Source: Minisyncoccota bacterium (GTDB taxonomy: Bacteria > Patescibacteriota > Minisyncoccia > Phycocordibacterales > Phycocordibacteraceae). Taken from it: a stretch of 64,000 bases of DNA. Below are positions 326 to 52,739 of this stretch, piece by piece. The stretch's first letter is position 1. Every line of letters begins with the position of its first letter. The notes beneath the pieces were generated by a model that was not told the DNA's origin, searched no databases, and worked only from the letters and a program-made list of their open reading frames with translations. A program made the translations under genes and the position numbers. The stretch is from the NCBI GenBank assembly GCA_022842945.1, contig JALHOO010000001.1, positions 221,830 through 285,829 of the forward strand. The letters run 5' to 3'.

Positions 326-326
326 C

Positions 327-354
327 TGCTGGCAGTCTGGGACGATGTTGGAAC
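327..354 (+). repeat. A-type cassette repeat, copy A1 (tgctggcagtctgggacgatgttggaac)
   Basis: Exact consensus copy; direct repeat shared with 14 other loci in this window. Confidence 0.9.
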
Positions 355-358
355 CGCT

Positions 359-733
359 CTAGTCAGCCCTAACAACATAAAAGGCTAGAGCCCCTTCTTG
401 TTGTTCCTTCTCTTCGCTCCACCAGCTCCTCAATCCCGAAAGCAGTTCCTCCTTGTCTCCAAGCTGTGAGAGGTCTTCTTCAATGAGTACGAATAGATCA
501 TTGAATGTTGGAGCACGGTAGATTTTCTTAATCTTCACTACGACTTTGCGAGCATCTTGTTCAGGCTCTATCTGCCAACCCGTGAGGTCTTCCCAAAACT
601 CTATAAAGTCACCCTCGCTCAAATCCTTCCAGGCTTCCTGGTCAAGACGAAAGTCGATTGACTGGCCGCTTTGCACAAGTGCCTCAAACGGCTCAGTGGT
701 TAGCTGGATAGACTTCTTTATCTGCATATGCAA
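359..733 (-). CDS. hypothetical acidic protein (cassette gene, array I)
   Basis: 124-aa ORF bounded by repeats A1 and A2; rich in E, D and W; no recognisable catalytic motif. Confidence 0.45.
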   Translation of the reverse strand: MHMQIKKSIQLTTEPFEALVQSGQSIDFRLDQEAWKDLSEGDFIEFWEDLTGWQIEPEQDARKVVVKIKKIYRAPTFNDLFVLIEEDLSQLGDKEELLSGLRSWWSEEKEQQEGALAFYVVRAD

Positions 734-747
734 AGTGTACCAAGGAT

Positions 748-775
748 TGCTGGCTGTCTGGGACGATGTTGGAAC
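748..775 (+). repeat. A-type cassette repeat, copy A2 (tgctggcTgtctgggacgatgttggaac)
   Basis: One mismatch to consensus. Confidence 0.9.
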
Positions 776-983
776 CTATACTATCCACAACTCTCGAGCC
801 ACCTAATTGCTTGCCAGTATCTAAATGCTAGACTTTCCTTAAGAAAGAGCGGTGCTCCGCTCTTCTGCAAGGTCGGAGTTTTTGACACCGACGGCTTAAT
901 CTCGGTTGAGACGCTAGCACGACCTTGTGCCCTTTCTTTCGGTCCTGACTTCGGTCGGGGCCTTTTCCTATACTATCTACTGT

Positions 984-1006
984 TGCTGGCAGACCAGGTA
1001 TCGAAC
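984..1006 (+). repeat. B-type junction repeat, copy B1 (tgctggcagaccaggtatcgaac)
   Basis: Shares the left arm TTGCTGGCAG with the A repeat and has a different right arm. It lies 1 nt from the TAG stop of lexA (plus-strand CTA at 1008-1010). Confidence 0.85.
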
Positions 1007-1007
1007 C

Positions 1008-1706: not shown

Positions 1707-1793
1707 CCGTCAATCGTACACCCGAGCTGGTGGTGCGCCTATACACAACATCTGTAGTTTTCCACACAACATACACAAGTTTACGTTCTCCCT

Positions 1794-2369: not shown

Positions 2370-2374
2370 AGGTA

Positions 2375-2860: not shown

Positions 2861-3183
2861 TAGGAGTTTCGGATATCAAGCACGGGAGACACTGGCTCCT
2901 CTATAACTACAGACGGCATAGACTGTGCACGAGCAAGATCCTCTGCAAGCTTCTTATTCTCCTTCTTAAGGCTCATGAGACGGAATCCGTCCTTAACCGC
3001 AGACGGAATAGATACAAGCAAACTTACGATTATGCCCACGGCAAACGCAATAAGGATGAGCAGTGCGAGGGAGCTTTCAAACTGCCAGCCGAGGAACGTA
3101 AGCGACACAACGGCGGTGTTCTGAAGCGCGAATAAGAGTGCGGCAACGCCGAGTAAGAAGCCAAGAATGAGGGATATGATCAT
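2860..3183 (-). CDS. small membrane protein, DUF1049/LapA-like
   Basis: Two TM helices followed by a KKENKKLAEDLARAQ coiled tail. The start is taken at the internal Met (MIISLILGF); the ORF-track extension to 3306 overlaps the trhO end. Confidence 0.4.
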   Translation of the reverse strand: MIISLILGFLLGVAALLFALQNTAVVSLTFLGWQFESSLALLILIAFAVGIIVSLLVSIPSAVKDGFRLMSLKKENKKLAEDLARAQSMPSVVIEEPVSPVLDIRNS

Positions 3184-3226
3184 GGGACCAGTATACCTTT
3201 TTAGTTCATGAAGATTGTATGTGGCC

Positions 3227-4084
3227 CTAGCAAACCGTTGAGCAGAAGACGCTTCTATTTCCGCTACAGCCTTCGCAAACGAGGAAATGCAGATGGCAGA
3301 AATCATTCGCGCAGTTCACGTACTTCTCTGTGGGAGAGCTACAGAAATGGCAGGTGCCAATGATTTCGCGTTCCCCGCCAAAGTGCATGGTCTTGCGGTC
3401 GTCAAAGGTGTAGAGAGACCCAAGGAAGTCTTTCCCTGGATACTTTTCCATGTACCCATGTATCCCGTTATCAAGCTGGTACACATCGTTGAAACCGTTC
3501 TCAAGCAGAAACGCAGACATCTTCTCGCAACGGACTCCCCCGGTGCATACCGTGAGCACCGTCTTGTCTTTGAGGTTCTCAAGCTTAGGGAGTGCCTCCG
3601 GCAAGTCGCGAGAGTTTTCGAGTCCGGGGTTAATGGAATCCTTAAAGTGCCCAGAGCGATATTCGTAATCGTTACGCATATCAACCACCACAAAGTCCTT
3701 CCCGCCCTCATACCACTCACGCAGTGTTTCAGGTGCCAGGTACTTGCCGGTGCGTTTGGTTGGATCTACGGACGCCGGAAACCTCGTCCCTACAATCTCT
3801 TCGCGCACCTTAACCGAGAGCTTTGGAAACGCTCTCCCAGTGCCTGCACTTCGTTTTATGCGCATATCGCTAAAGCGTTCGTCCTGAAGCAGTTCTTCAG
3901 CAAAAGCTTCGGTATCCTCCACACTTCCCTCAAGCGTGCCGTTAATGCCCTCTCCCGCCACAAGAATGCGCCCTACAAGGGTATGTTCCTTGGCTTGTGC
4001 CCGAAGACGCGCAGAAAGCGCCTCTGGATCCTCTACGGATACATACTTATAAAACAGGATTATTTGCGGGGTTATGGTCTCCAT
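3227..4084 (-). CDS. trhO: rhodanese-domain tRNA U34 hydroxylase TrhO/YceA family
   Basis: UPF0176 N-terminal region (ILFYKY...), rhodanese active-site loop CTGGVRCEK and C-terminal Cys-rich tail. Confidence 0.65.
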   Translation of the reverse strand: METITPQIILFYKYVSVEDPEALSARLRAQAKEHTLVGRILVAGEGINGTLEGSVEDTEAFAEELLQDERFSDMRIKRSAGTGRAFPKLSVKVREEIVGTRFPASVDPTKRTGKYLAPETLREWYEGGKDFVVVDMRNDYEYRSGHFKDSINPGLENSRDLPEALPKLENLKDKTVLTVCTGGVRCEKMSAFLLENGFNDVYQLDNGIHGYMEKYPGKDFLGSLYTFDDRKTMHFGGEREIIGTCHFCSSPTEKYVNCANDFCHLHFLVCEGCSGNRSVFCSTVC

Positions 4085-4164
4085 ATACTCTCTTTACCCT
4101 ACAACATCCTCTACATACGAGAAAGGGTCCAGCAGAGAGCTGGACCCTTTGGTCTCTATGGAGC

Positions 4165-5247
4165 TTAACGCGTTAGGGTCCAGGTTGTTCCCTGAATCGG
4201 GAAGGTGCTTGGAACGCTTGCGCCGGTTGTTGCTGATACCACATCGAGCATAAGCGTCTGTCCTGCATAGTTTCCGCTCATACCATTCAAGAGGACTTTA
4301 ATGGAGTAGATACGAATCTGTCCGGGTGGCACAACCGCTGGAAGCGGCACGTACATAAGACCGTTCTTGAAGAGACCAGCTCCATACGTGGTGTAGCGAG
4401 AACCTCCCTTGTCGTCATTTGTTGAAACACTCACAACTGCATCTGTTGAAGCAGAACCGTTCTGCTTCAGAGTAAAGCCGTCGATGTGTGCCGGCTTGTT
4501 GCTCGTGTTCACAACCTTAATGTAGGCAACAGGTATAGAGGCTCCTGGTGCAGCATTCCCTCCTGAAAGAAGTGGAAGCGCACTCATAACAAGGGTACCG
4601 CCCTTAACCGAGGCTGAGGACGGGACACCGTCTCCAACAATAAGGGTGCCTTCTCCAATAGCATCAATCTCTGCTCCCTTCTCGCCGAAGAGGGTTACGT
4701 CGTACGCACCGTCCTTAAGACTCTTTGTTACGCGCACATCCCATTCACCGCTACGCACACGCGTAACCCTGCTCTTGAACGCGAGCTTCCCATTCTCGTC
4801 CCTAATCTCAAGACGCACGGACCTCGTGTCCGTGGCTTCCCCTGAGATGGTTGGTTTTGGGTGCTCTGTAACGAGCGTGTCCTTGTTAAAAGACGCATCA
4901 ACAACCACGAGCTCTACACCGCAGTCTGCTTTGCGGCTGCCGTTTGTGAAGCGGTAGGAATATTCCGTGTCTTTGGTTGGAGAGACGGTTATAGAGTCTT
5001 CGAGATCAATCTCGTCCTTGTCGATATCAATGGCTTCCTTTGCGTTTACTCCTTTCCATTCGATAGTAACCTCGTCTCCCTTTTGAACGAGTACTTCTTC
5101 GGTCCCTTTAAACGTTGCAGAGTCGTAGGGTGTGGTAACGGTAAGCTCGCAGGAGACTCTCGAACTTGCCGCAGAAGCGCTGTTCGGGATGATGGCGAGT
5201 GCGCCAACTATGAAGACGCTGAGCGTCAGAGTGCGTAGTAAGGACAT
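4165..5247 (-). CDS. secreted beta-rich hypothetical protein
   Basis: Signal peptide MSLLRTLTLSVFIVGALAIIPNSASA; 360 aa; no catalytic motif recognised. Confidence 0.5.
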   Translation of the reverse strand: MSLLRTLTLSVFIVGALAIIPNSASAASSRVSCELTVTTPYDSATFKGTEEVLVQKGDEVTIEWKGVNAKEAIDIDKDEIDLEDSITVSPTKDTEYSYRFTNGSRKADCGVELVVVDASFNKDTLVTEHPKPTISGEATDTRSVRLEIRDENGKLAFKSRVTRVRSGEWDVRVTKSLKDGAYDVTLFGEKGAEIDAIGEGTLIVGDGVPSSASVKGGTLVMSALPLLSGGNAAPGASIPVAYIKVVNTSNKPAHIDGFTLKQNGSASTDAVVSVSTNDDKGGSRYTTYGAGLFKNGLMYVPLPAVVPPGQIRIYSIKVLLNGMSGNYAGQTLMLDVVSATTGASVPSTFPIQGTTWTLTR

Positions 5248-5391
5248 AGGTACAAATCTGAATTATCGAAGTAACTGTAGTAAACCGTAGCACGATATGA
5301 AGTATGAAGAGGATGGTGCTTCATGAAGTCTGCAACGCAAAACTCCTGAAGCATGGGCTTCAGGAGTTAAGACGGTATACCCCAAGGGGTC

Positions 5392-6212: not shown

Positions 6213-6855
6213 AAAGCCGCTAGAGGATACGCGCGTGGAGATTGCCCTCCTTCATCTGAAGAAGGTGGACGGTCTGCTGTACCAGAAAGCTCTCTTGGTT
6301 CAGGATCACCTTGCTTCTCGTAAGGCCTCAAAGCGCCGCTACTCAAGCCAGAAACTGTTCGCGTCCCTTGCAGCAAGTGTCACCAGCCAGCAGCTCTCCA
6401 TAAAAGCCGCCGATACTATATGGAGCAGACTTGAGCTTGCCTGCGGCGGCGAGGTTACGCCAGAAGCAATCAAGAGATTCCGAATCCCAACTCTCCGAAA
6501 AGCAGGACTCTCTGCTGCAAAGGTAAAGACGTTGAAGGAACTTTCTAAAGCGGTACTCTCCGGAGAGTTGAACCTCCCTGCTCTCAAGAAGTTGCCTGAA
6601 GAGGAAGCCATAGAGAAGCTCTCGAGTGTCTGGGGTATTGGACGCTGGACCGCAGAGATGTTTCTCATGTTTGCGCTTGAGCGAGAGGATGTGTTCTCTC
6701 CGGGAGACTTGGGTCTTCGCCGCTCCATAGAAACCCTCTACAGTCTCCCCAAGGACGTACATGTACGAGAGATTGAGGCTATAGCACAAGTCTGGTCTCC
6801 GCATCGAACCTTCGCGTCGAGAGTGTTGTGGAGGATTCGGGATGTGCAGGGTTAG
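6166..6855 (+). CDS. HhH-GPD family DNA glycosylase (AlkA/3-methyladenine glycosylase II-like)
   Basis: Helix-hairpin-helix GIGRWTAEMFLMFAL followed by the catalytic Asp region (DVFSPGD); start possibly at 6202. Confidence 0.6.
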   Translation: MKRTMGFSILARMPSKKPLEDTRVEIALLHLKKVDGLLYQKALLVQDHLASRKASKRRYSSQKLFASLAASVTSQQLSIKAADTIWSRLELACGGEVTPEAIKRFRIPTLRKAGLSAAKVKTLKELSKAVLSGELNLPALKKLPEEEAIEKLSSVWGIGRWTAEMFLMFALEREDVFSPGDLGLRRSIETLYSLPKDVHVREIEAIAQVWSPHRTFASRVLWRIRDVQG

Positions 6856-6910
6856 AGATACCTACACTTTACAAAACTATAAATATAGTGTATTATATTT
6901 ATAGGCAACG

Positions 6911-7342
6911 ATGCCCGGGCAGGAATGCCCTCAATCACCCGGAAGGGTCCTAGGAATAGGAGAAGGTACCTTGAATAACGTTCAGAGACTGATGGTTGGC
7001 AGTGCGAATCTCAATCAGATGCGTGCCGAAATCAAGATGGTAGTGAGTACGGTGGCGTCCATGATTAACGCCAATACGGGAACGCATTCCCAAAACAAGT
7101 CGGGCGTTTACTGGATCATCGACACCAAGCGCTTCACCCGGATCTACTGCCGCGATTCTGAGGAGGTGTCGCGGCGAGACTACATGCTCTACTGCTCCTC
7201 CCAGAAGAGCGACAAGGAGATGAGTCTCATCGACGTTGTCGAGGCACATCAGAGCCTCGAAGGATTCCTGGAATGGGCCATGGACCTCTACCCCGAACTT
7301 CGCGCGCAGTTGAAACCAATCTTTGAGGCCGCCGAGCTCTAA
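6911..7342 (+). CDS. hypothetical protein (outermost gene of array II)
   Basis: 143-aa ORF followed by a terminator hairpin and then repeat A4. Confidence 0.4.
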   Translation: MPGQECPQSPGRVLGIGEGTLNNVQRLMVGSANLNQMRAEIKMVVSTVASMINANTGTHSQNKSGVYWIIDTKRFTRIYCRDSEEVSRRDYMLYCSSQKSDKEMSLIDVVEAHQSLEGFLEWAMDLYPELRAQLKPIFEAAEL

Positions 7343-7400: not shown

Positions 7401-7414
7401 ACATACCAAGAGTT

Positions 7415-7442
7415 TGCTGGCTGTCTGGGACGATGTTGGAAC
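7415..7442 (+). repeat. A-type cassette repeat, copy A4 (tgctggcTgtctgggacgatgttggaac)
   Basis: One mismatch; same variant as A2. Confidence 0.9.
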
Positions 7443-7463
7443 CATATTGCTCAGCTATTGACA

Positions 7464-7495
7464 AGTACTATATATGTGTAATATAGTTATCCCAG
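7464..7495 (+). promoter_or_regulatory. sigma-70-like promoter TTGACA-N17-TATAGT
   Basis: ttgacaagtactatatatgtgtaatatagt, followed by an AAGGAGAG RBS 5 nt before the ATG at 7520. Confidence 0.5.
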
Positions 7496-7519
7496 CTCAT
7501 TTCAACAAAGGAGAGCACC

Positions 7520-7798
7520 ATGTCTGAGGCCCCTGAGGATAAAAAGGTGTTGGTCGGCGAGCGACTCATCCAAGCTCTGCTGTCCCCGGATTACTTTGAA
7601 TTAGTCCTCGACATCTTCAAGGACAGCACGAGCGTTGCGAGCATTGTCGACGTCTTCGACTGTACGGATTATTCCGATCTCGTCAAAGAGGTCTTCGGCA
7701 ATCTGACCAATGAAGAGGTCAAAGATCTTTTCCGGCCTGCACTTCCCGACGCGCTCCGCCGGTTCCTCGGCGCTCAAAGCGTCATCATCACCTGGTGA
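7520..7798 (+). CDS. hypothetical acidic small protein (cassette gene, array II)
   Basis: Own promoter, strong RBS and ATG; 92 aa; terminator downstream; flanked by repeats A4 and A5. Confidence 0.55.
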   Translation: MSEAPEDKKVLVGERLIQALLSPDYFELVLDIFKDSTSVASIVDVFDCTDYSDLVKEVFGNLTNEEVKDLFRPALPDALRRFLGAQSVIITW

Positions 7799-7802
7799 AC
7801 CC

Positions 7803-7860
7803 GTCCCTTCGTCAAACGAAAACCAAACCTTCGTTTCGGCGGAGGGGCGGTTTTCTTTTA
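7803..7860 (+). terminator. terminator hairpins with T-tract (AAACGAA..TTCGTTT and GGCGGAGGGGCGGTTTTCTTTT)
   Basis: Inverted repeats plus TTTTCTTTT immediately before repeat A5. Confidence 0.45.
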
Positions 7861-7869
7861 TCCAAATAT

Positions 7870-7897
7870 TGCTGGGGGTCTGGGACGATGTTGGAAC
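7870..7897 (+). repeat. A-type cassette repeat, copy A5 (tgctggGGgtctgggacgatgttggaac)
   Basis: CA to GG variant, also seen in A17. Confidence 0.9.
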
Positions 7898-7941
7898 CTT
7901 TATGCAATCTATGTTAGGTTCTGTCTAGAAGGAGTTTTGCA

Positions 7942-8289
7942 ATGGCCCACGACGAAAACAAGTATCTGCTGTGGTGTTTTCTATGGACCACCCACAGCTC
8001 TGACAGACCGGTTAGTGATATTGCGTGCTCGTTACATAGTTCTCTCGCAAAAGGCCAGGAGTTCTGTACGAATTACTGGCGCAACATGCCGGAACACGCC
8101 CCCTCGACCTATCTTGCGCCTACAGGTACTCGCTACCTGTGCCGAGTTGATGAAAAGACTCATAGACGCATCGTGGATAGCGATATTGGCCTCTGGTGCG
8201 TAACGGTTCCTCCCAGTACAACAGAAGCACTTGCCCTTCTTCCCCCTACTGACTTTATGTCACTCACAGAGGGCAGGATGCCGGCGTAA
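7942..8289 (+). CDS. hypothetical Cys/Trp-rich small protein (cassette gene, array II)
   Basis: AAGGAG RBS 7 nt upstream of the ATG; 115 aa; lies between A5 and B2. Confidence 0.5.
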   Translation: MAHDENKYLLWCFLWTTHSSDRPVSDIACSLHSSLAKGQEFCTNYWRNMPEHAPSTYLAPTGTRYLCRVDEKTHRRIVDSDIGLWCVTVPPSTTEALALLPPTDFMSLTEGRMPA

Positions 8290-8380
8290 TCTATGCTACC
8301 GATCTGATGAATCAAGACGGGATTCCCTGAGATAAGAAGCCGAAAACGAGAAATCGTGAGTAGGCTTTTCTCTTTTTTAT

Positions 8381-8403
8381 TGCTGGCAGACTAGGTATCG
8401 AAC
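8381..8403 (+). repeat. B-type junction repeat, copy B2 (tgctggcagactaggtatcgaac)
   Basis: Ends 2 nt before the TAG stop (plus-strand CTA at 8406-8408) of the M23 peptidase gene. Confidence 0.85.
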
Positions 8404-8405
8404 TT

Positions 8406-9773
8406 CTACAAATACGACATCGGATTCAAGTACGCACTCGGAGGAGCAACCGGCATAACCGCACCTCCTGCACTGCAGCCTGTTCCGGCCGGTTGTCCCT
8501 GCTGCTTGCGCCATGCGCCAAGGTCCATAATCTTTACACCCGTTGCAACATACACACTGAAGTGGAGGTGGGGTCCGGTTGCGTAGCCTGTCATACCTGA
8601 GAGGCCGATAGTTTGGCCGGTTGAGACACTCTGTCCTGCAGATACGGTAATACTTGAAAGGTGCGAGTATGAGGTAGCAAGCCCGTTCGGGTGCTTAATA
8701 AGTACCCACTTTCCGAAGGAGAAGCATCCTGGAACAGCGTCTGTGTTTCCGGTCCCCATAACCGTGCCTGAAAGTGCTGCCTGCACCGGGGTACCGCTTG
8801 GCATGCCGATATCGATAGCGTTGTGCCCGGAGCCGTTATAGATCTGTGAGTTGGCGGTTGCAAACGCCGTGTTGCCGAAATACTGCGTTATGCAGCGCGG
8901 GTTCCCCAGTGCCCCTGCCTTCCCTTCGCACGCTGCAGCAAAGCTTGGAGAATATGGCCACGCAAGCACGCCCGTTTGCACGGTAGGCACCTCAGCCTGC
9001 CCCACGGCCTTAAGACTGTTCTCAAGACTTGAGAGTGCCTGCTCGAAGAGTGCACGCTCTGCACGCTTCCGGGTTATGAGATCCTGGTACACGCTCTCCT
9101 GGTTCTTGGTCTGTGAGAGAAGCCTATCCTTCTCGCTCTTCTGCACATCAAGAGACTGCTTCTGGATACCAAGATCGCTCGCAAGGTTGGTAAGTTCGTT
9201 CTTCTTTGCGTCAACGTCCTGAAGCTGTGCACCAAGCGCATCCTTCGCTTGTGAGAGATTCGCTACGTTCGCACGAAGCGCCGTATTCAACGATGCTGCG
9301 TCGTCAATTGCCGTCCACGCTTCTGTGAGGTCGCCAGACGCAAACACCTGCTCAACGAGCGAGATCTCTCCGGCTTCTGCCATATTCCGGATAGATTCCT
9401 CAAGGGTACGCTTGTCGAGAGCGATAAGTTGCTCGGTGTCCTCAATGTTGTACGAGAGCTCGTTCAACTGAAGATTCGTAGAGGAAATCCTCGTCTGTGT
9501 AAGGTTAATCTGCGTGCTCGTCTGCTGGCGCGTTATATCAATAGACTTAATAGCGGTCTGCAGTGTCTGAGACTGTCCGTTCAAAATAAGGCGCTGGCGC
9601 TCTGCCTCTGCAATCTCGGCCTCCAAATCTTTAATCCTCTGTGCGTGCTCACTTATCTGGCTTTTGATCTCGTCTTCGCTCTGTGCAAAGGCTCCTTCCG
9701 GTACAACGGCACCTATACCGGCACACGCAACCAGAAGAACGAGAAGAAAGGATAAGGAACGCAAGGTCTGCAT
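8406..9773 (-). CDS. M23 family metallopeptidase with N-terminal coiled coil (EnvC/LytM-like murein hydrolase)
   Basis: Signal peptide, long coiled-coil region, and a C-terminal M23 domain with HxxxD (GHNAIDIG) and HLH (GPHLHFSV) motifs. Confidence 0.8.
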   Translation of the reverse strand: MQTLRSLSFLLVLLVACAGIGAVVPEGAFAQSEDEIKSQISEHAQRIKDLEAEIAEAERQRLILNGQSQTLQTAIKSIDITRQQTSTQINLTQTRISSTNLQLNELSYNIEDTEQLIALDKRTLEESIRNMAEAGEISLVEQVFASGDLTEAWTAIDDAASLNTALRANVANLSQAKDALGAQLQDVDAKKNELTNLASDLGIQKQSLDVQKSEKDRLLSQTKNQESVYQDLITRKRAERALFEQALSSLENSLKAVGQAEVPTVQTGVLAWPYSPSFAAACEGKAGALGNPRCITQYFGNTAFATANSQIYNGSGHNAIDIGMPSGTPVQAALSGTVMGTGNTDAVPGCFSFGKWVLIKHPNGLATSYSHLSSITVSAGQSVSTGQTIGLSGMTGYATGPHLHFSVYVATGVKIMDLGAWRKQQGQPAGTGCSAGGAVMPVAPPSAYLNPMSYL

Positions 9774-13506: not shown

Positions 13507-13550
13507 GACCTCCCTATTCTAACGCATGGGTGGTGTGTTAAGGCGTGTAT

Positions 13551-13578
13551 AGCTGAATGTTTGGGAGGATGTTGGAAC
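13551..13578 (+). repeat. degenerate A-type repeat, copy A7 (gctgaatgtttgggaggatgttggaac)
   Basis: Right arm TGGGAgGATGTTGGAAC is conserved and the left arm has diverged. It marks the ftsW-proximal end of array III. Confidence 0.6.
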
Positions 13579-13634
13579 CCTGCACTTAGCCTGATATAGT
13601 GCCGCCAGACGTAACCCTCAACCAGAGAGATCCA

Positions 13635-13802
13635 ATGCAGACTCAAGATATTTCTGAAGACGGTGACATCCTGCGGACCGTCCATATCCCTCAATCCGAT
13701 GATCAAGCGCTGCGCGAGATCGCACAAGAAGAAGGAAGGACTGTTCCTGGATTGATACGCGAAGCGTGTATGAACTCGTTTGCGGTGCGTAAGAAATCTT
13801 GA
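13635..13802 (+). CDS. ribbon-helix-helix (CopG/Arc-like) small protein (cassette gene, array III)
   Basis: AGAGAG RBS then ATG; predicted beta-strand RTVHIP then helices DDQALREIAQEEGRTV and PGLIREAC; 55 aa. The ORF track lists a longer form starting at 13599. Confidence 0.4.
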   Translation: MQTQDISEDGDILRTVHIPQSDDQALREIAQEEGRTVPGLIREACMNSFAVRKKS

Positions 13803-13853
13803 CCACTACCCACTAGCGGAATTCCCGCTCCGGTGGGTTTTCTGTTTTATTCT

Positions 13854-14198
13854 CTACACCCTCCTCCACTCGCCGGTCTCTTCATTAAGTATTGCAACTC
13901 GATTCCCTCCAACCGGCATGCCGTTCTCGTAATAGATAACGCTGATGGCCGTCTCAGTTGAAACGTTCTGCCTACCGTGATTACCTTTTCTCATGTACTG
14001 ATATTCGATTGTCTCACCTCCGTTCTCTCCAGTACGCTCTACTTCTCGCAGATACACCCCTTGCTCGTCTGAGAGCTCCCGACCAAGAGTATACCCTTCT
14101 ATATACTGAGAGAGTGCATCGAGTACTTCCTGGCTTGAGAGGATTGTTTCTCTCTTGTTCTCTATGCTATGCGGTTGAGACCCGGGGAATTTTTCCAT
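13854..14198 (-). CDS. hypothetical protein (cassette gene, array III)
   Basis: 114-aa ORF. A bidirectional hairpin lies between it and the RHH ORF, and repeat A8 lies just upstream of its start. Confidence 0.45.
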   Translation of the reverse strand: MEKFPGSQPHSIENKRETILSSQEVLDALSQYIEGYTLGRELSDEQGVYLREVERTGENGGETIEYQYMRKGNHGRQNVSTETAISVIYYENGMPVGGNRVAILNEETGEWRRV

Positions 14199-14222
14199 AG
14201 ACTGATATTAGCATCTGGCTAT

Positions 14223-14250
14223 TACTGGCAGTCTGGGACGACGTTGGAGC
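14223..14250 (+). repeat. A-type cassette repeat, copy A8 (tActggcagtctgggacgAcgttggaGc)
   Basis: Three mismatches. Confidence 0.8.
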
Positions 14251-14299
14251 CAAACTCACTTAATGATACTGTCCTCAAGGATCCAAGAGGAGAATTGCC

Positions 14300-14518
14300 A
14301 TGACAACACACCAAGAAGCTGTGGATGGCCGCCACGCCATCCACAGGAAGTACCGCGATCTGGTCACAGGAGTAGCGGTTATCCAACACCCGACTGAGCC
14401 AGGAAGTTGGGCCGTGCGCCTGACACTCCGAAGCGAGGTCGCACCAGGAACCATTGCATCGGAACTGGACGGCATAACAATTGTGACAGAGGTGGGTGGA
14501 CCGGCAAATCTTTTATAG
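14300..14518 (+). CDS. hypothetical small protein (cassette gene, array III)
   Basis: AGAGGAGA RBS then ATG; 72 aa; terminator hairpin GCGCAGGACAAAATCCTGCGC downstream. Confidence 0.45.
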   Translation: MTTHQEAVDGRHAIHRKYRDLVTGVAVIQHPTEPGSWAVRLTLRSEVAPGTIASELDGITIVTEVGGPANLL

Positions 14519-14537
14519 AAAGCCACTGGTCTTAATG

Positions 14538-14562
14538 AGCGCAGGACAAAATCCTGCGCTTT
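14538..14562 (+). terminator. terminator hairpin GCGCAGGAcaaaaTCCTGCGC plus TTTACCG
   Basis: Perfect 8-bp stem immediately before repeat A9. Confidence 0.45.
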
Positions 14563-14567
14563 ACCGT

Positions 14568-14595
14568 TGCTGGCAGTCTGGAACGACGTTGGAAC
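14568..14595 (+). repeat. A-type cassette repeat, copy A9 (tgctggcagtctggAacgAcgttggaac)
   Basis: Two mismatches. Confidence 0.9.
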
Positions 14596-14682
14596 TTTTT
14601 TAGCAGACGATTACTTGACCCAGGTTCTAACTAATGGCTAGATGTAACCAGGAAGCATAGTAATTGAAACGGGAGAATTTTA

Positions 14683-15057
14683 GTGGCAAAAATTGGTCTT
14701 AAACGGAGCAAAAGAAGAAGAACATCAGGAAGAATGCGTGGAGGCGGTAGTGGGAACAGAAAAACTTGTAGAGTATCCCTCCGCACTATTGCGCTACTCT
14801 TTCCTCCTAGAAGCGTACAGAGAGTGTACCTGCACGGAAGGTGGCAGAAATCGAGAGGCCGACGACCCTGTCTTAGTCTAGAAAACCTGCAAGACCCTCG
14901 TCTCGCATATGAGCAGGCAGAGGAGCTCGTGGGCGAATACATTCGTTCAGTCCTAAGTACGCCCCATGCATATGGCAAATGGCAATGGGAAGGTCGCGGA
15001 CGTGAATTAGCGAAAGCGATTTCTGAACAGGTGCCTCCGGAAGAAGTGTTCTGGTAA
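14683..15057 (+). CDS. hypothetical protein (cassette gene, array III; start uncertain)
   Basis: GGGAGA RBS then GTG. The N-terminus is low-complexity R/G-rich, the C-terminal half (RLAYEQAEELVGEYIRSVL...) is protein-like. An alternative 62-aa frame also exists (14693..14881). Confidence 0.3.
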   Translation: MAKIGLKRSKRRRTSGRMRGGGSGNRKTCRVSLRTIALLFPPRSVQRVYLHGRWQKSRGRRPCLSLENLQDPRLAYEQAEELVGEYIRSVLSTPHAYGKWQWEGRGRELAKAISEQVPPEEVFW

Positions 15058-15064
15058 CCTCAAG

Positions 15065-15100
15065 CCGTCGAGTCTCTAGAAGACTCGACGGCTTTTCTTT
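15065..15100 (+). terminator. rho-independent terminator AGCCGTCGAGTCTctagaAGACTCGACGGCTTTTCTTTT
   Basis: 13-bp perfect stem plus T-tract immediately before repeat A10. Confidence 0.6.
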
Positions 15101-15105
15101 TATAT

Positions 15106-15133
15106 TGCTGGCAGTCTGGAACGATGTTGGAAC
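15106..15133 (+). repeat. A-type cassette repeat, copy A10 (tgctggcagtctggAacgatgttggaac)
   Basis: One mismatch. Confidence 0.9.
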
Positions 15134-15184
15134 CATGATAATAAAATCCCGCCTTCTTAGGGGCGGGACTTCATGGAGCCTAAT

Positions 15185-15517
15185 TTAGGTAGTCTCCCGG
15201 ATAGTTTCCAGATGGGCGTCGACGAGTTCGACCAGTTTTTTCAATACGGCGTCGCGAGCATAGACTGCGGGCAGGTTGGATCCAGAGATCCAGCGGTAAA
15301 GCGTGACCGGCGAAACACCGAAGACATGCGCCATGCTCTCTACATTGCCGAGTTTCGAAATAACCGCGCCGACAATCTGAGAGAACTCTTCTCTGTCTTT
15401 GACGTTCGTTGTCTCGAGAACTTCCTTCGCAGTCTCAAACCACGAGACATCGATGAGTCGAAGCGTAGTGAGCACGCGGCTCTGAGGACGCTCCGCCTTG
15501 ATCGGGTGAACGGTCAT
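15185..15517 (-). CDS. XRE-family helix-turn-helix transcriptional regulator (cassette gene, array III)
   Basis: HTH motif MAHVFGVSPVTLYRWISG; 110 aa; minus-strand terminator AAGTCCCGCCCCTAAGAAGGCGGGATTTT downstream of its stop. Confidence 0.55.
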   Translation of the reverse strand: MTVHPIKAERPQSRVLTTLRLIDVSWFETAKEVLETTNVKDREEFSQIVGAVISKLGNVESMAHVFGVSPVTLYRWISGSNLPAVYARDAVLKKLVELVDAHLETIRETT

Positions 15518-15612
15518 ATGTTGATACCCTCTGTGAAAAGCAAAAAAGAACGATACCGCATAGTACCCTGCAAATCAGATTTAGCAACGTAATCTAATTG
15601 TTGTAGAAGTTA

Positions 15613-15635
15613 TTCTGGCAGACCAGGTATTGAAC
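15613..15635 (+). repeat. B-type junction repeat, copy B3 (ttctggcagaccaggtattgaac)
   Basis: Abuts or overlaps by 1 nt the TAG stop (plus-strand CTA at 15635-15637) of mraY. Confidence 0.8.
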
Positions 15636-50044: not shown

Positions 50045-50045
50045 T

Positions 50046-50073
50046 TGCTGGCAGCCTGGGACGACGTTGGAAC
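50046..50073 (+). repeat. A-type cassette repeat, copy A12 (tgctggcagCctgggacgAcgttggaac)
   Basis: Two mismatches. Confidence 0.9.
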
Positions 50074-50075
50074 CC

Positions 50076-50417
50076 TTACCCTTCAACTTCGTACTGTTCA
50101 GGGTTCCATGCCGGGGTGCACGCAATGATGAGAACGAGCCTTCCGTCCCACCACACCCGCTCTCCTTTCTCAATTAGAACCACGTCCCCTTTCTTGAGAG
50201 GAATCGTTTCATTATTGACAGTTACGTTTCCTTCCCCTTCTTGGACATATACCAACTCTGAAACGGCTTTATTAATCGCACTTCCTTCTAAGGGGTACCG
50301 ACCGGTTATCTCTATGCGTGCCAGATTAATGTCAGGCTCCCCTGTCTGGTATTCAAAGGCTATGCAGGAGGATGCGTTCTCGAATCTTTTTGCATCAGTT
50401 CCGCATACGATTTTCAT
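50076..50417 (-). CDS. cupin domain protein (cassette gene, array IV)
   Basis: Cupin beta-barrel motifs; 113 aa; bounded by repeats A12 and A13. Confidence 0.5.
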   Translation of the reverse strand: MKIVCGTDAKRFENASSCIAFEYQTGEPDINLARIEITGRYPLEGSAINKAVSELVYVQEGEGNVTVNNETIPLKKGDVVLIEKGERVWWDGRLVLIIACTPAWNPEQYEVEG

Positions 50418-50436
50418 CTACTTATTCTAGCAATAT

Positions 50437-50464
50437 TGCTGGCAGTCTGGGACGATGTTGGAAC
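50437..50464 (+). repeat. A-type cassette repeat, copy A13 (exact consensus)
   Basis: tgctggcagtctgggacgatgttggaac. Confidence 0.9.
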
Positions 50465-50513
50465 TCATATACAAGAGTGTTATGGTTTTCTCCAGACCAG
50501 AACGGAGAACGAC

Positions 50514-50654
50514 ATGACCACCCCTTTGCGTCCCACCGGAGCAAAATCCGACAGGGACATTACTGACGCATTCGGCAAGTTTGCCTTGGAGCTTCCTGGT
50601 GCGAAACGTATTTTGCGTGTACCGACAAGTGCGCCGAAAGACCAGAAACGTTGA
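50514..50654 (+). CDS. small hypothetical protein, 46 aa (cassette gene, array IV)
   Basis: GGAGAA RBS then ATG; terminator CCCCCGATggaaacgTCGGGGG plus CTTTCTT downstream. The ORF-track version 50436..50654 starts inside the repeat. Confidence 0.35.
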   Translation: MTTPLRPTGAKSDRDITDAFGKFALELPGAKRILRVPTSAPKDQKR

Positions 50655-50712
50655 ATGCTTCACAAACCAGTTGCTTACCCCCGATGGAAACGTCGGGGGC
50701 TTTCTTAAAAAT

Positions 50713-50738
50713 CCTGCTGTCTGGAACAATGTTGGAAC
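50713..50738 (+). repeat. A-type repeat variant, copy A14 (cctgctgtctggaacaatgttggaac)
   Basis: Belongs to the AACAATG subfamily together with A15 and A16; 2-nt shorter left arm. Confidence 0.75.
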
Positions 50739-50780
50739 TTCCATTAGAAATGGCCGGCACCTTGCGAGTGCCGGCCAAGA

Positions 50781-50978
50781 TCAAAAGAATGATTTGTGTT
50801 GATTGACTATTATGGACGCAAGAATGCATCCGCGACGGTCTTGGCGATATCGAGCGGAACCCCTCGATCGAGGTTCTTTCCGATAAGACGCTTGTACCGG
50901 TTGGTTCTGCGCCAGGGCTTGGTAGCTGGTGCTGCTTTCACATGCATAGGAATCTCCAGAAATGAGCGGTATGCCCAC
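50781..50978 (-). CDS. small hypothetical protein (cassette gene, array IV; GTG start)
   Basis: 65-aa ORF. A minus-strand hairpin GGCCGGCACtcgcaagGTGCCGGCC follows immediately downstream of its stop. Confidence 0.25.
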   Translation of the reverse strand: MGIPLISGDSYACESSTSYQALAQNQPVQASYRKEPRSRGSARYRQDRRGCILASIIVNQHKSFF

Positions 50979-51040
50979 TCTTAGGAACTAACCTCAACAA
51001 TCTAAGGTTTCTTCTTAAATACTGTGCTAGGTATGGAGAT

Positions 51041-51068
51041 TGCCAGCTGTCTGGAACAATGTTGGAAC
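51041..51068 (+). repeat. A-type repeat variant, copy A15 (tgccagctgtctggaacaatgttggaac)
   Basis: CCAGCTG and AACAATG variant. Confidence 0.85.
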
Positions 51069-51069
51069 C

Positions 51070-51573
51070 CTATTCCTTTCTAGGGAATGAGTGCAGCCAA
51101 GAAATAAGACGCTCTAGTGGTACGGTACGGTCCTTCTGTTCAGTCTTAAAGCAACGAGGTACAAGCGAGACTGGTACGGTGTAGACACGCTCTTCGGACT
51201 CAGAAAGATACGCCTTTCTCTGCTCAACAAACAAACAGTTTGGATAGTCTTGGCCTTCCCATACCTTCTCAAAAGAGCTCTCCTGACTCCGGTACGCAAG
51301 TATTTCTACCCCTCCTCCTTCTCGGCTGCTTGCAGAGAATGCATAATACTCTGCGTCCTTTGCCTTGAGAGAAAGATCTGTCTCTGGCGGCAATTCTAGT
51401 TCTTGCTTGGCCTTCTCAAGTACGGCAGAAAAACCTTCAGTTTGACTCATCTCTTCTGCATTTGCCCGGGCACTCGCCTCAAGCGATTCGGTGCTTTTGG
51501 GGGTTAGGAGGAAAATAGCTGCTGCCAATGTTAGTACGAAGATTCCTATTGCAAGGTTTCCGTGCGCTTTCAT
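51070..51573 (-). CDS. secreted hypothetical protein (cassette gene, array IV)
   Basis: Signal peptide MKAHGNLAIGIFVLTLAAAIFLL; 167 aa; bounded by repeats A15 and A16. Confidence 0.5.
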   Translation of the reverse strand: MKAHGNLAIGIFVLTLAAAIFLLTPKSTESLEASARANAEEMSQTEGFSAVLEKAKQELELPPETDLSLKAKDAEYYAFSASSREGGGVEILAYRSQESSFEKVWEGQDYPNCLFVEQRKAYLSESEERVYTVPVSLVPRCFKTEQKDRTVPLERLISWLHSFPRKE

Positions 51574-51606
51574 GCTTTAAATTGTATCAGTTGTGTATAC
51601 CTTTAC

Positions 51607-51634
51607 TGCCAGCTGTCTGGAACAATGTTGGAAT
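51607..51634 (+). repeat. A-type repeat variant, copy A16 (tgccagctgtctggaacaatgttggaaT)
   Basis: Same subfamily as A15. Confidence 0.85.
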
Positions 51635-51683
51635 CCTCCAGGCACAGTGCTATTATCGGCCTAGGCAGAACAAGGAGCCTCAA

Positions 51684-51917
51684 GTGGTACATGAATCAAC
51701 ATTCACCTTCGTGAGTGCGGACGGCCAGAGAATCGAGGCCAACCGCAGGACCAACCCTGATGGCTCTGTCGGAGGATGGGTTGCTGGAAACGCTGACGTG
51801 CATCCGACTGCGATCATCAATGTCGACGCAATTGTCGAGCCTGGCGCTATCGTGGGCGAGAACGAGCATCTCGCCGCAGGAGAGACCAAGAGCGGCGACG
51901 GGTGGACGAACGCGTAA
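51684..51917 (+). CDS. small left-handed beta-helix (hexapeptide-repeat) protein (cassette gene, array IV)
   Basis: AAGGAG RBS 6 nt before a GTG in frame with the track ORF; hexapeptide periodicity IINVDA/IVEPGA/IVGENE/HLAAGE; terminator GGGCAGTCGGAC..GTCCGACTGCCC downstream. Confidence 0.45.
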   Translation: MVHESTFTFVSADGQRIEANRRTNPDGSVGGWVAGNADVHPTAIINVDAIVEPGAIVGENEHLAAGETKSGDGWTNA

Positions 51918-51963
51918 GAATAGGGGCAGTCGGACGAATCTTGTCCGACTGCCCTTTCTTAAT

Positions 51964-51991
51964 TGCTGGGGGTCTGGGACGATGTTGGAAC
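51964..51991 (+). repeat. A-type cassette repeat, copy A17 (tgctggGGgtctgggacgatgttggaac)
   Basis: Same GG variant as A5 in array II. Confidence 0.9.
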
Positions 51992-52360
51992 CGTCTTGAC
52001 ACTCCACAGACAGGTGTATACTTAACAGTGGAAGTAAGGGAGGACATCAAACGAGACTCTCGGCCCAACAGCCGGGACCAGGCCATCCTTCGAGAAGTCA
52101 CGCTAAATGCTTCGGCAGCCATAGAGGGTTCCAGCCCCGTAAGCGGTACAACTTCAAAGAAGGTCTGAGTAAGCTTGTGCAAGTGCGCACATGTACAAGC
52201 CCAACACGGGTGGTTCTGCTTAAGCCGTTAGGCGTCAGCAAGTAGAGTTGGGTTTCGACCCAATGAACCGGTTCTCACTTTTGAGCTGCCATCCAAGCCT
52301 AAGCCCTTTCTTCCAACTTTTCTTTCAGGCCACCTCTCGGGGTGGTCTTTCTCTTTAGAT

Positions 52361-52388
52361 TGCTGGCAGTCTGGGACGACGTTAGAAC
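52361..52388 (+). repeat. A-type cassette repeat, copy A18 (tgctggcagtctgggacgAcgttAgaac)
   Basis: Two mismatches; preceded by a terminator GGCCACCtctcgGGGTGGTC plus TTTCTCTTT. Confidence 0.85.
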
Positions 52389-52392
52389 TTTA

Positions 52393-52698
52393 CTACGCCT
52401 TAACGATGGTTTTCTTAACAGACTCAACAAATAGTCTAAAAGCAGGACGGTCTTCTTTCTCGTATACAACCTTAACTCCAAGCAGGTGTTGCCTAGGGCA
52501 AGAAAGATCTTTTCTCGCGATAGAAACCTTCGGGTCCCGTATTCTGTCCAAGTACAGCCTTCTTAATGCGCCTGGACCATCTTTCTGGTACCGGCAGATT
52601 TCCACGCCGCACTTCTCGCATGTAATAGCGAGTAAACGAGAATATCCCCCGCGGCTTCTGCGGAATTTATCGTTCTTAAACTTCTCGCTCATACGCAA
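52393..52698 (-). CDS. Cys-rich zinc-ribbon-like small protein (cassette gene, array IV)
   Basis: CEKCGVEIC ... CPRQH, a four-Cys arrangement; basic; 101 aa. Confidence 0.4.
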   Translation of the reverse strand: MRMSEKFKNDKFRRSRGGYSRLLAITCEKCGVEICRYQKDGPGALRRLYLDRIRDPKVSIARKDLSCPRQHLLGVKVVYEKEDRPAFRLFVESVKKTIVKA

Positions 52699-52716
52699 AG
52701 GTTAGCACAGCGATAT

Positions 52717-52739
52717 TGCTGGCAGACTAGGGACCGAAC
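52717..52739 (+). repeat. B-type junction repeat, copy B4 (tgctggcagactagggaccgaac)
   Basis: Directly abuts the TAG stop (plus-strand CTA at 52740-52742) of alaS. Confidence 0.8.

Follow-up and report, generated by a model that had tools for sequence, protein, structure and literature searches.

Between positions 7414 and 8403 of the window, the 64-kb stretch of Minisyncoccota DNA under study, two small genes are each set off by copies of a short repeat, and the question raised by this locus is what such units are and whether they move. The initial annotation, made from the sequence alone, described them as autonomous expression units with cargo resembling an integron cassette pool; its observations were partly confirmed and its interpretation is partly supported. 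As units of expression the two are indeed self-contained, each with a promoter, a ribosome-binding site (RBS), a small ORF and a terminator (Table 1). The hexamers TTGACA and TATAGT proposed for cassette 1 were recovered, separated by 18 nt rather than the 17 originally given; both RBS assignments and the cassette 1 terminator were located as described. The 92-aa product is acidic (17 D/E versus 9 K/R) and the 115-aa product is rich in Cys and Trp, also as described.

Table 1. Coordinates of the focal array (array 2) and of the other arrays in the window
Feature	Position	Strand	Remarks
30-nt repeat	7414..7443	+	left edge of cassette 1; distal site of array 2
sigma70-like promoter TTGACA-N18-TATAGT, cassette 1	7458..7487	+	11/12 consensus matches; homologous promoter in the L366 cassette copy
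92-aa acidic ORF	7520..7798	+	RBS AAGGAGAG at 7508-7515; small all-helical protein family
double-hairpin intrinsic terminator module	7805..7865	+	includes terminator 7831-7850 followed by a T-run
30-nt repeat separating cassettes 1 and 2	7869..7898	+	TTGGAA at 7891-7896 is a -35-like box
conserved leader, cassette 2	7891..7934	+	TTGGAA-N18-TGT-TAGGTT, extended -10 at 7912-7920; RBS AAGGAG at 7929-7934
115-aa Cys/Trp-rich ORF	7942..8289	+	purifying selection; 5 Cys, 4 Trp
conserved 3' tail and terminator, cassette 2	8297..8379	+	about 80-90% identical to L016
terminal anchor TTGCTGGCAGACTAGGTATCGAAC	8380..8403	+	tRNA-Gln 3'-end mimic (T-loop to acceptor end, opposite strand)
array 1	326..1006	+	repeats 326, 747; anchor 983-1006 abuts lexA stop codon; two units, one ORF-less
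array 3	13550..15635	+	repeats 13550, 14222, 14567, 15105; anchor 15612-15635; between ftsW and mraY
array 4	50045..52739	+	repeats 50045, 50436, about 50710, 51040, 51606, 51963, 52360; anchor 52716-52739 abuts alaS stop codon

Conservation of the ORFs, on which the initial annotation had made its case depend, held up. For the 115-aa ORF, comparison with a 65%-identical homolog gave a dN of 0.24 and a pS of 0.80, with dS saturated, and to judge from this substitution pattern the gene is under purifying selection. A word-indexed search alone had left the 92-aa ORF an orphan, a status overturned by exhaustive HMMER searching, which found five homologs of 89-95 aa at 34-50% identity. On these sequence comparisons both focal ORFs are real genes. 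Structure prediction, also suggested at the outset, gave a partial return: the 92-aa family was modelled as six helices with a pLDDT of 79 and no match in the PDB (best E 4.2), and the 115-aa product reached a pLDDT of 51, a model of insufficient quality for a structure search.

Both units are flanked by an asymmetric 30-nt direct repeat, TTGCTGGnnGTCTGGGACGATGTTGGAACC. Matches to it at three or fewer mismatches number 11 in the window, against 0 expected by chance, and altogether 15 copies fall into four clusters, corresponding to four arrays, all on the same strand. When 504 distinct copies were compared, conservation stopped at the edges of the 30-nt block, within which a 20-nt arm, TCTGGGACGATGTTGGAACC, is nearly invariant and constant across classes. 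Each unit runs from this arm through about 0.3-0.8 kb of cargo to TTGCTGGnnG. Genome contigs yielded 64 arrays and 162 units with a median length of 507 bp, and addition of metagenome loci brought the units to 332 (323-800 bp from the 10th to the 90th percentile, typically with one small gene each). Array polarity is constant, all sites within one array being direct and in a single orientation. The repeat itself lacks dyad symmetry (best dyad 5/9) and is unstructured as ssDNA (dG 0 to -0.3 kcal/mol, z > +1, weaker than most shuffles). A CRISPR array, which needs short spacers and 23-50-nt repeats, was rejected on the spacing of the repeats and on the nature of the intervals, which are genes with expression signals.

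Every array terminates at a tRNA-Gln 3' end or at a 24-25-nt mimic of one, and the mimics sit directly behind the stop codons of housekeeping genes. In the window the anchors are 24 nt long and abut the stop codons of lexA, the M23 peptidase gene, mraY and alaS, the focal one being separated by 2 nt from the TAG that closes the M23 peptidase gene (minus strand, 8406-9773). Several anchors per genome are present, four of them here within 64 kb. Nine loci (L001, L004, L008, L048, L077, L104, L105, L295 and L366) have a genuine tRNA-Gln 3' end as anchor, and that of L077 matches the mimic anchors of the same genome (L015 and L016) over 26 nt. GGTTC and CTSCCAGCAA are common to the repeat and the tRNA-Gln 3' end; the internal repeats have an arm type of their own and did not arise as displaced tRNA ends. 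A same-strand repeat lies within 1.6 kb upstream of 66 of the 67 anchor-like sites. The stop codon is TAG at 22 of 23 anchors, an enrichment that is only modest because TAG already closes 27 of 39 host genes. This tRNA-Gln type of array end, which defines the arrays, was absent from the initial annotation. Actual tRNA genes at the window anchors were sought and rejected, ARAGORN and Rfam detecting only a tRNA-Tyr at 25272-25356, and Rfam searches of arrays 1, 2 and 4 with thresholds as loose as E 1 returned nothing meaningful.

The cargo had been characterised as regulatory, toxin-antitoxin-like, immunity-like or secreted, but in the wider survey it is not specifically of these kinds. When 140 cassette ORFs were searched against Pfam, most had no match and 64 families were hit by one or two members each, including SDRs, methyltransferases, NUDIX, GNAT, HAD, transporters and DUFs, and PADLOC on 10 cassette proteins found nothing; the cargo is broad. 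Individual assignments within the window fared unevenly. The proposed RHH protein (13635..13802) scored marginally, with 20.7 bits against a cutoff of 20.5, and the HTH match of the proposed XRE regulator (15185..15517) was weak (E about 1e-3). One cupin of the two is solid (50076-50417, E 5e-8), the other solid cupin (41268-41660) lying outside the arrays; the supposedly secreted protein at 51070-51573 has a hydrophobic N-terminus; and the zinc ribbon (52393..52698) and beta-helix (51684..51917) received no Pfam support.

That every unit has a promoter of its own is true for the two focal units, which are both of the antisense-to-anchor type, but not in general. Possession of a promoter and terminator is orientation-dependent: of the 115 ORFs that run antisense to the anchor, 20% have sigma70-like promoters and 52% terminators, versus 9% and 10% for anchor-sense ORFs (n=202, two-thirds of the total); SD motifs precede 50% of the former and 14% of the latter. 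Antisense cassettes would be transcribed from their own promoter, often with the TTGGAA of the repeat as -35 box, and would use their own SD motif and terminator. In 44 of 99 antisense units TAnnnT is found 16-19 nt past this TTGGAA, and the leader of cassette 2 is conserved in alignment with other loci and in L239. The sense cassettes mostly lack such signals and may rely on read-through from whichever gene anchors the array, tRNA or host, or on leaderless expression. The host codon fit of cassette ORFs is poorer than that of housekeeping genes.

Comparison between loci bears directly on whether the cassettes move. Orthologous anchors hold different cargo behind alaS (L062, L072), M23/HhH-GPD (L035, L025) and ftsW (L064). 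The 92-aa cassette, complete with promoter, UTR and terminator, is also found in the tRNA-Gln-anchored array of L366, and homologs of the 115-aa cassette lie in arrays L239 and L247. One unit of array 4 (52390-52715) aligns from end to end, at 88% identity, with an internal unit of L295, and the similarity stops at the repeats. Finally, L372 matches window positions 986-5263 at 91.8% nucleotide identity, with an identical LexA, and yet carries different repeat-bounded cassettes behind lexA, the anchor-proximal ones differing from those of the window; similarity stops right after CTGCCAG of the anchor, inside the TTGCTGG core. These alignments argue that cassette turnover and mobility between arrays are real, and in this respect, as in the organisation of discrete cassettes in arrays, the likeness to an integron cassette pool was well drawn. 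Neither circular intermediates nor empty anchors nor polymorphism within a population came to light, which counts against the reading of these units as mobile cassettes. Repeat arm variants proved uninformative as linkage markers. Viral donors were also rejected, all 120 of 120 IMG/VR matches to the 20-mer lacking the left block; the two examined closely (L003 and L120) fall within a C5 DNA methyltransferase gene.

A dedicated recombinase was searched for at several scales, and 1.5 Mb of loci were screened with motifs and with jackhmmer. There was none in the 64-kb window (Pfam on essentially all window genes), none inside the large units inspected (850 bp or more) and none recurring near the 64 arrays, where the clustered neighbours were housekeeping proteins (DnaX, Dus, SerRS, FtsQ-like and LepA-like); remnants of integrase or replication genes were absent from more than 300 units. 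The sole array-adjacent recombinase is an Xer-like gene abutting the distal repeat in one clade (L034, L324, L355). Three more distant orthologs of the encoded protein have no downstream array and its conservation is no better than that of its neighbours, and it is a weak candidate.

We consider it likely that 7414-8403 is a two-unit array whose units belong to a family of miniature integrative gene cassettes spread throughout Patescibacteria. Insertion and removal of these cassettes, as circles, would be the work of a site-specific recombinase supplied in trans and most probably of the tyrosine type; it would act at the anchor or at another repeat and exchange strands in or beside the shared TTGCTGG core, which corresponds to CCAG/CAA at the tRNA-like 3' terminus. 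By analogy, the anchor would act as the equivalent of attI and the repeat as that of attC, and the outcome would be a strain-variable pool of small accessory genes within a compact, conserved chromosome. The lack of dyad symmetry, unusual for a simple tyrosine-recombinase core site, counts against this explanation, as do the absence of a recombinase gene from the 64-kb window and the large units and the restriction of the array-adjacent Xer-like gene to one clade. More tentatively, and with slightly less than even confidence, we propose a previously unrecognised gene-capture system of Patescibacteria, an integron analogue of independent origin in which a conserved trans recombinase would place single-gene minicircles at many chromosomal landing pads, these being copies of the tRNA-Gln 3' terminus directly behind essential genes. 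Full-text literature searches, with the literal motif included, returned no prior description, and this integron-like system found across Patescibacteria (CPR) is apparently undescribed.

Exchange might instead need no dedicated recombinase, with the repeats serving as portable homology for RecA after natural DNA uptake. Patescibacteria carry competence and pilus genes, the arrays have no linked recombinase and the 30-nt repeats are near-identical across lineages. Moreover, promoter and terminator modules are shared around unrelated ORFs: the terminator module of cassette 1, for one, recurs with unrelated ORFs in at least 10 loci. Such sharing suggests recombination between cassettes. We nevertheless regard RecA-mediated swapping as unlikely, since it leaves unaccounted for the invariance of the asymmetric 20-nt arm across classes, the single orientation of sites in each array and the docking at the 3' end of a tRNA, where integrases classically act, and since the breakpoint between L372 and the window lies in the core rather than in homologous flanking DNA.

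The arrays could also be passive scars, left where full-size elements with an integrase, such as tycheposons, ICEs or prophages, repeatedly entered at tRNA-Gln and decayed to att repeats and leftover genes. In their likeness to the 3' end of tRNA-Gln the repeats do recall att scars derived from partial tRNAs, the arrays lack a linked integrase, and tandem accretion at tRNA genes is well known (10.1101/2020.12.28.424599). However, the units are uniformly tiny, with one gene each, they contain no element remnants, the arm has not decayed in 504 copies, the internal repeats are of a separate arm type, intact units recur in unrelated arrays with their edges at the repeats, and cassettes have turned over at 92% nucleotide identity, all of which makes the scar explanation rather improbable. 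Resemblance to tycheposons and to CIME or ICE accretion is genuine in the docking at a tRNA 3' end with partial-tRNA-related repeats, found here at no fewer than nine tRNA-Gln loci, and further resemblance to tycheposons lies in flexible islands within streamlined genomes and would extend to successive insertions that push older ones outward (10.1101/2020.12.28.424599). But Prochlorococcus tycheposons span several kb and carry their own integrase and replication module (10.1101/2020.12.28.424599), whereas the units here measure 0.3-0.8 kb and have neither, and more than 300 of them include no recognisable deletion derivative of such an element. Here, too, the internal sites are a dedicated arm type and anchors also occur as mimics behind protein-coding genes.

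If the repeat were simply a regulatory or boundary element (a -35/UP element, an insulator or a factor-binding site) marking accessory genes, the arrays would not be mobile by means of it. The spacing of TTGGAA and TAnnnT in antisense units favours this reading, as does the presence outside the arrays, at 59935-59964, of the leader that follows the repeat. It is very improbable all the same: two-thirds of the cassette genes point away from the -35 box, the tRNA-Gln anchor, the unit-precise edges of homology and the cassette replacement in L372 are left unaccounted for, and promoter and recombination roles can coexist.

A true integron, or a CALIN (an attC cluster without integrase), is effectively refuted: the single-gene cassette arrays with diverse cargo mostly without known function would suit it, and some CPR Xer-like proteins bear the NCBI name 'site-specific tyrosine recombinase/integron integrase', but the 30-nt repeat has no inverted core sites and no ssDNA structure, no array adjoins intI, the gene for a tyrosine recombinase with the IntI-specific domain, the Xer-like protein scores 127-133 bits against the TIGR02249 integron-integrase cutoff of 265, a genome has several anchors, and promoters of their own are present in many cassettes.

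The proposed cassette family is still integron-like. As in sedentary chromosomal integrons and CALINs, arrays are unidirectional, their cassettes are small and mostly hold a single gene, each array has one special site at its end beside many cassette-borne repeated sites, the cargo is hypervariable and turns over between close strains at a stable platform position, and sense cassettes, largely without signals, could rely on platform transcription. It is not an integron, because the repeat is unstructured, no integrase is linked and several anchors are present per genome. attC is an imperfect palindrome of about 60-140 nt (R''-L''...L'-R'), recognised as a folded single strand and conserved in structure, whereas the site here is a short asymmetric duplex conserved in primary sequence and the anchors are tRNA-Gln-derived. 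In integrons the cassettes as a rule lack promoters and are transcribed from Pc, the promoter of the platform; here about a third of the cassettes have their own promoter and terminator, and those in the sense orientation mostly have neither.

Two further systems offer partial parallels. Acinetobacter pdif modules and IMEX at dif are likewise small modules with short (about 28-30 bp) sites and no recombinase of their own, and are presumed to be served in trans by the host Xer. dif and pdif, however, are imperfect palindromes of two 11-bp arms and a 6-bp spacer, with pdif orientation alternating; the repeat here has no such symmetry, all copies are direct, and linkage to Xer is not general. The R64 shufflon recombinase Rci is a tyrosine recombinase acting on asymmetric sfx sites, each a 7-bp core plus one conserved arm, much as TTGCTGG is joined here to one conserved arm. 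The shufflon, though, inverts segments of one gene between inverted sites, while direct sites here bound independent genes.

CPR/Patescibacteria genomes are tiny and streamlined, and little is understood of how these bacteria gain genes. On the gene-capture reading, the system would furnish a large part of the accessory genes that differ between strains of these ultra-small organisms. If the cassette reading is correct, it would explain where strain-variable small genes are located and by what means they pass between lineages even as far apart as Saccharibacteria and Paceibacteria; integron-like architecture could then evolve from a tRNA attachment site. It would also imply a recombinase with a short, asymmetric and highly conserved target, a possible genetic tool where almost none exist. 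The motif could be used to retrieve CPR cassettes from metagenomes, by PCR or by mining of reads, in the way that attC primers were used for integrons. For annotation, the arrays interrupt conserved operons (mraY / array / ftsW here), and short-read assemblies break at the repeats. Logan contigs of the source runs (SRR28154518-25) are collinear with the window and end at repeats because the repeat copies are identical over 31 nt.

The 30-nt repeat, TTGCTGGnnGTCTGGGACGATGTTGGAACC, is present in the window in 11 copies at three or fewer mismatches, versus 0 expected, and in 15 copies if degenerate ones are counted, all of them on the + strand in four clusters, each with one terminal site at its right end (see table). 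The rest of the window is ordinary CPR chromosome (gltX, murG, ftsW, aminoacyl-tRNA synthetases, ribosomal proteins, rpoA, dnaK/dnaJ/grpE). Array 3 (13550-15635; four cassettes, 2.1 kb) lies inside the conserved dcw cell-division and cell-wall cluster at the mraY-ftsW junction, which likewise bears an array in L064 (L handles denote recovered genome or metagenome loci). Alignment of 504 distinct copies limited conservation to 30 nt: TTGCTGG, then three positions with little conservation, then a 20-nt arm that hardly varies. Dyad symmetry is absent (best 5/9), and single-stranded repeat DNA is unstructured (dG 0 to -0.3 kcal/mol, z above +1); the repeat is therefore not an attC site. Read on the tRNA strand it is GGTTC-CAACATCGTCCCAGA-CTGCCAGCAA, and the tRNA-Gln end is GGTTC-GATCCCTAGT-CTCCCAGCAA, both flanks being common to the two.

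A search with the 20-mer repeat core recovered over 118 genome and over 120 metagenome loci, and those from Patescibacteria repeat the same layout, in which one terminal site closes a same-strand array. In nine loci (L001, L004, L008, L048, L077, L104, L105, L295 and L366) a true tRNA-Gln gene supplies that site with its T-arm and acceptor 3' end. Elsewhere, including the window, the anchor only mimics this end, over about 24-26 nt, and lacks a tRNA body; neither ARAGORN nor Rfam detected a tRNA at the window's terminal sites. In Parcubacteria C7867-008, two mimics (L015, L016) equal the genome's own real tRNA-Gln end (L077) over 26 nt. A repeat lies at most 1.6 kb upstream at 66/67 anchor-like sites. 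The sole site with no nearby upstream repeat, a tRNA-Gln-end mimic at L295 1-125, lies 16 nt away from a true tRNA-Gln gene whose sequence differs, and looks like a displaced tRNA 3' fragment. More than half of the mimic anchors (23/40) abut, at a distance of -1 to +4 nt, the stop of an ORF of 80 or more codons in convergent orientation. TAG is found at 22 of these 23 stops, only a modest enrichment because it is the commonest host stop (TAG 27, TAA 11 and TGA 1 among 39 window housekeeping genes).

Coordinates of the four window arrays and of the two focal units of array 2
Feature	Position	Strand	Details
Repeat cluster, array 1	326-776	+	terminal site at 983, abutting lexA stop codon
Repeat cluster, array 2	7414-7898	+	terminal site at 8380, abutting M23 peptidase gene stop codon
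Repeat cluster, array 3	13550-15134	+	terminal site at 15612, abutting mraY stop codon
Repeat cluster, array 4	50045-52389	+	terminal site at 52716, abutting alaS stop codon
Repeat opening unit 1	7414-7443	+	
Promoter, unit 1	7458-7487		TTGACA-N18-TATAGT, 11/12 matches
RBS, unit 1	7508-7515		AAGGAGAG
ORF, unit 1	7520-7798		92 aa, acidic
Terminator, unit 1	7831-7850 (scan)		long double hairpin with T-run; module of about 55-65 nt, 7805-7865
Repeat opening unit 2	7869-7898	+	
Leader, unit 2	7891-7896 (repeat's TTGGAA)		18 nt, then TGT-TAGGTT (extended -10-like box)
RBS, unit 2	7929-7934		AAGGAG
ORF, unit 2	7942-8289		115 aa, 5 Cys and 4 Trp
Conserved tail, unit 2	8297-8379		
Terminal site closing array 2	8380-8403		TTGCTGGCAGACTAGGTATCGAAC, related to repeat yet distinct; 2 nt from TAG stop of minus-strand M23 peptidase gene

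Across the genome loci, 64 arrays held 162 units, whose median length was 507 bp (10th-90th percentile 323-800 bp), and 152/156 units had a single dominant ORF (median 130 aa). Evidence that these discrete units move came from several comparisons. A homolog of the 92-aa protein (P0004, 50% identical) lies between two repeats of the tRNA-Gln-anchored array L366, where the TTGACA/TATATA promoter, the 5' UTR and the terminator are homologous as well. The 115-aa cassette recurs in L239 (65% identical, same repeat and leader, VanZ gene beside it) and in L247 (46-58%), whose array additionally bears a homolog of the 114-aa gene of window array 3. Unit 52390-52715 is 88% identical over its full length to an internal unit of the unrelated array L295, the similarity ending at the repeats. 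Furthermore, anchor positions are orthologous at 42-80% protein identity with different cassettes (alaS: L062, L072; M23/HhH-GPD: L035, L025; ftsW: L064). The relative L372, from another sequencing run, matches window 986-5263 at 91.8% identity and encodes exactly the same LexA, and past the anchor it carries other repeat-bounded cassettes (a DUF1905 protein, a 116-aa ORF). The similarity stops right after CTGCCAG, at the TTGCTGG core or within it, and from this alignment we read the difference as a probable cassette replacement with its crossover between CCAG and CAA, at the tRNA-like 3' terminus. Such a crossover is compatible with a model whereby a circular unit (arm, cargo, core) would recombine with the core of an anchor. 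The tRNA-type arm would then stay in place in all legitimate recombination, in agreement with the terminal position of anchor-type sites in 66/67 cases.

Both focal units share a grammar of repeat, promoter/leader, RBS, ORF and terminator/tail that can be read directly from the sequence. The ORFs, both RBSs and the unit 1 terminator were found as initially annotated, as was the TTGACA/TATAGT promoter, the spacer of which is 18 nt and not the 17 nt claimed. The terminator module (..CGAAAACCAAACCTTCGTTTCG..GGGGCGGTTTTCTTTTAT) also occurs in L081, L297, L355, L366 (twice), L277, L284, L247, L309, L313 and L365; it is 82-96% conserved at cassette 3' ends where the encoded proteins are unrelated, and its G-U pairs imply that it acts as RNA. 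Promoter/leader modules are likewise common to cassettes with unrelated ORFs, and the terminator distribution suggests a common cassette chassis or frequent cassette-cassette recombination. A copy of the cassette leader, TTCTACAATGTGTGGTAGGTTCTGTCTAGA, is found outside the arrays with no adjacent repeat (59935-59964, 83% to 7900-7929), upstream of an unannotated ORF at 60000-61061. Region 6828-7342 possibly represents an old third unit of array 2: its 143-aa ORF (6911-7342) has its own promoter (TTTACA-N17-TATTAT) and is missing at the orthologous L035 site, and the HhH-GPD gene overlaps in its final codons with a heavily degenerated repeat-like sequence, which is clearer in L035 (900-925).

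In 317 single-ORF units, terminators (25% vs 2% in shuffled sequence), sigma70-like promoters (13% vs 5%) and SD motifs (27% vs 10%) were enriched in a strongly orientation-dependent manner. ORFs antisense to the anchor's tRNA or gene (n = 115) had a terminator in 52%, an SD motif in 50% and a promoter in 20%, and those in the anchor's sense (n = 202) in 10%, 14% and 9%, respectively. Additionally, TAnnnT follows the repeat's TTGGAA by 16-19 nt in 44/99 antisense units. Thus the proposal that every unit has a promoter of its own holds for a minority class, the antisense, autonomous type to which both focal units belong; most units may be leaderless or, in an integron-like way, co-transcribed from the side of the anchor.

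By sequence comparison, both focal ORFs are genes. The initial annotation had named absence of coding signal or homologs as counting against cassette function; both are conserved, the 115-aa pair with dN 0.24 and saturated synonymous sites (pS 0.80) and the 92-aa ORF as one of six family members that have 15 invariant positions in common; its codon-model score is equivocal (z 2.6; an antisense frame scored higher). Cassette ORFs generally scored lower than housekeeping genes (-0.17 to 0.19 versus 0.26 +/- 0.08), which fits the expectation for foreign genes. A TGA stop in 3/14 cassette ORFs is consistent with foreign origin or some mis-called ORFs. The focal ORFs had no significant Pfam match (best E about 0.09) and their products no PADLOC match. 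The 92-aa family is predicted to be all-helical (pLDDT 79), its model having no match in the PDB; the 115-aa prediction is unreliable (pLDDT 51).

Among the cargo initially listed for the window, a cupin is solid (Cupin_2 at 50076-50417, E 5e-8), the RHH protein marginal and the HTH regulator weak by Pfam, and 359-733 has a weak colicin-immunity-like match below cutoff (E 0.006); Pfam assigned none of the other window cassettes. The cargo is not specifically regulatory or immunity-related, as had been proposed, but a broad accessory pool: among 140 cassette ORFs, 64 Pfam families were matched, each by 1-2 members, including SDRs, methyltransferases, NUDIX, GNAT, HAD, TauE, EamA, DAG kinase and many DUFs. 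Two repeat-bounded units, 777-982 and 51993-52355, have no plausible ORF, and comparable units occur in L034 and L035. The latter window unit has a TTGACA-N17-TATACT promoter and a terminator, and its 333-nt transcript folds better than 100/100 shuffles (z -2.9) with no Rfam match; from these features, ORF-less units are candidate cassette-borne small RNAs.

No recombinase was found in the 64-kb window or in large units, and none is recurrent beside arrays. In L034 and L324 a XerA/XerD-type tyrosine recombinase gene extends directly into the distal repeat, and in L355 it lies close to an array, these being orthologous loci of one clade; by rough estimate, chance alone would yield one Xer adjacency in about 60 arrays with a probability of about 0.2. 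More distant Xer-like orthologs in conserved synteny have no array beside them, and the conservation of the Xer-like protein is not out of the ordinary. It is still the only named candidate for a trans-acting enzyme, on the analogy of modules serviced by Xer.

By integron membership tests the array system falls outside that class: it works in a similar way, with a putative docking site closing each array, single-gene cassettes that all point one way, fast turnover and platforms that stay put, but has neither attC structure nor IntI, and has several anchors per genome. Like pdif modules it has short sites with no recombinase, but pdif sites are palindromic and the repeat is not. It resembles tycheposon-type elements in tRNA docking, but its units are without the integrase and replication modules that define tycheposons (10.1101/2020.12.28.424599). 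Full-text literature searches, the literal motif included, and a Hainich Patescibacteria HGT paper yielded no prior description. We place the system among site-specific gene-cassette systems, and there is a substantial chance that it merits a category to itself.

The 20-mer also occurs inside a cytosine-5 DNA methyltransferase ORF (..AVVWDDVGTFDG..PCQPFS..ENV) of Rhodobacterales and Myxococcus prophages (L003 5553-5584; L120 about 3248-3275; many IMG/VR loci, L119-L238), the likeness extending to GGCAG upstream after a 3-nt gap and CTT downstream. Since about 9 chance matches are expected in 596 Gb, a single chance match that a gene family has multiplied is plausible, although there may be a real link. 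Certain repeat copies share 31 identical nt (7868-7898 and 51962-51992), which is why short-read Logan contigs of the source population (L240-L245, SRR28154518-25) break exactly at repeats; k=31 assemblies will systematically fragment or collapse these arrays. Finally, a 260-aa LAGLIDADG homing-endonuclease ORF (25347-26129, minus strand; PF14528, E 2e-17) reaches about 10 nt into the 5' end of tRNA-Tyr (25272-25356), the window's only tRNA gene.
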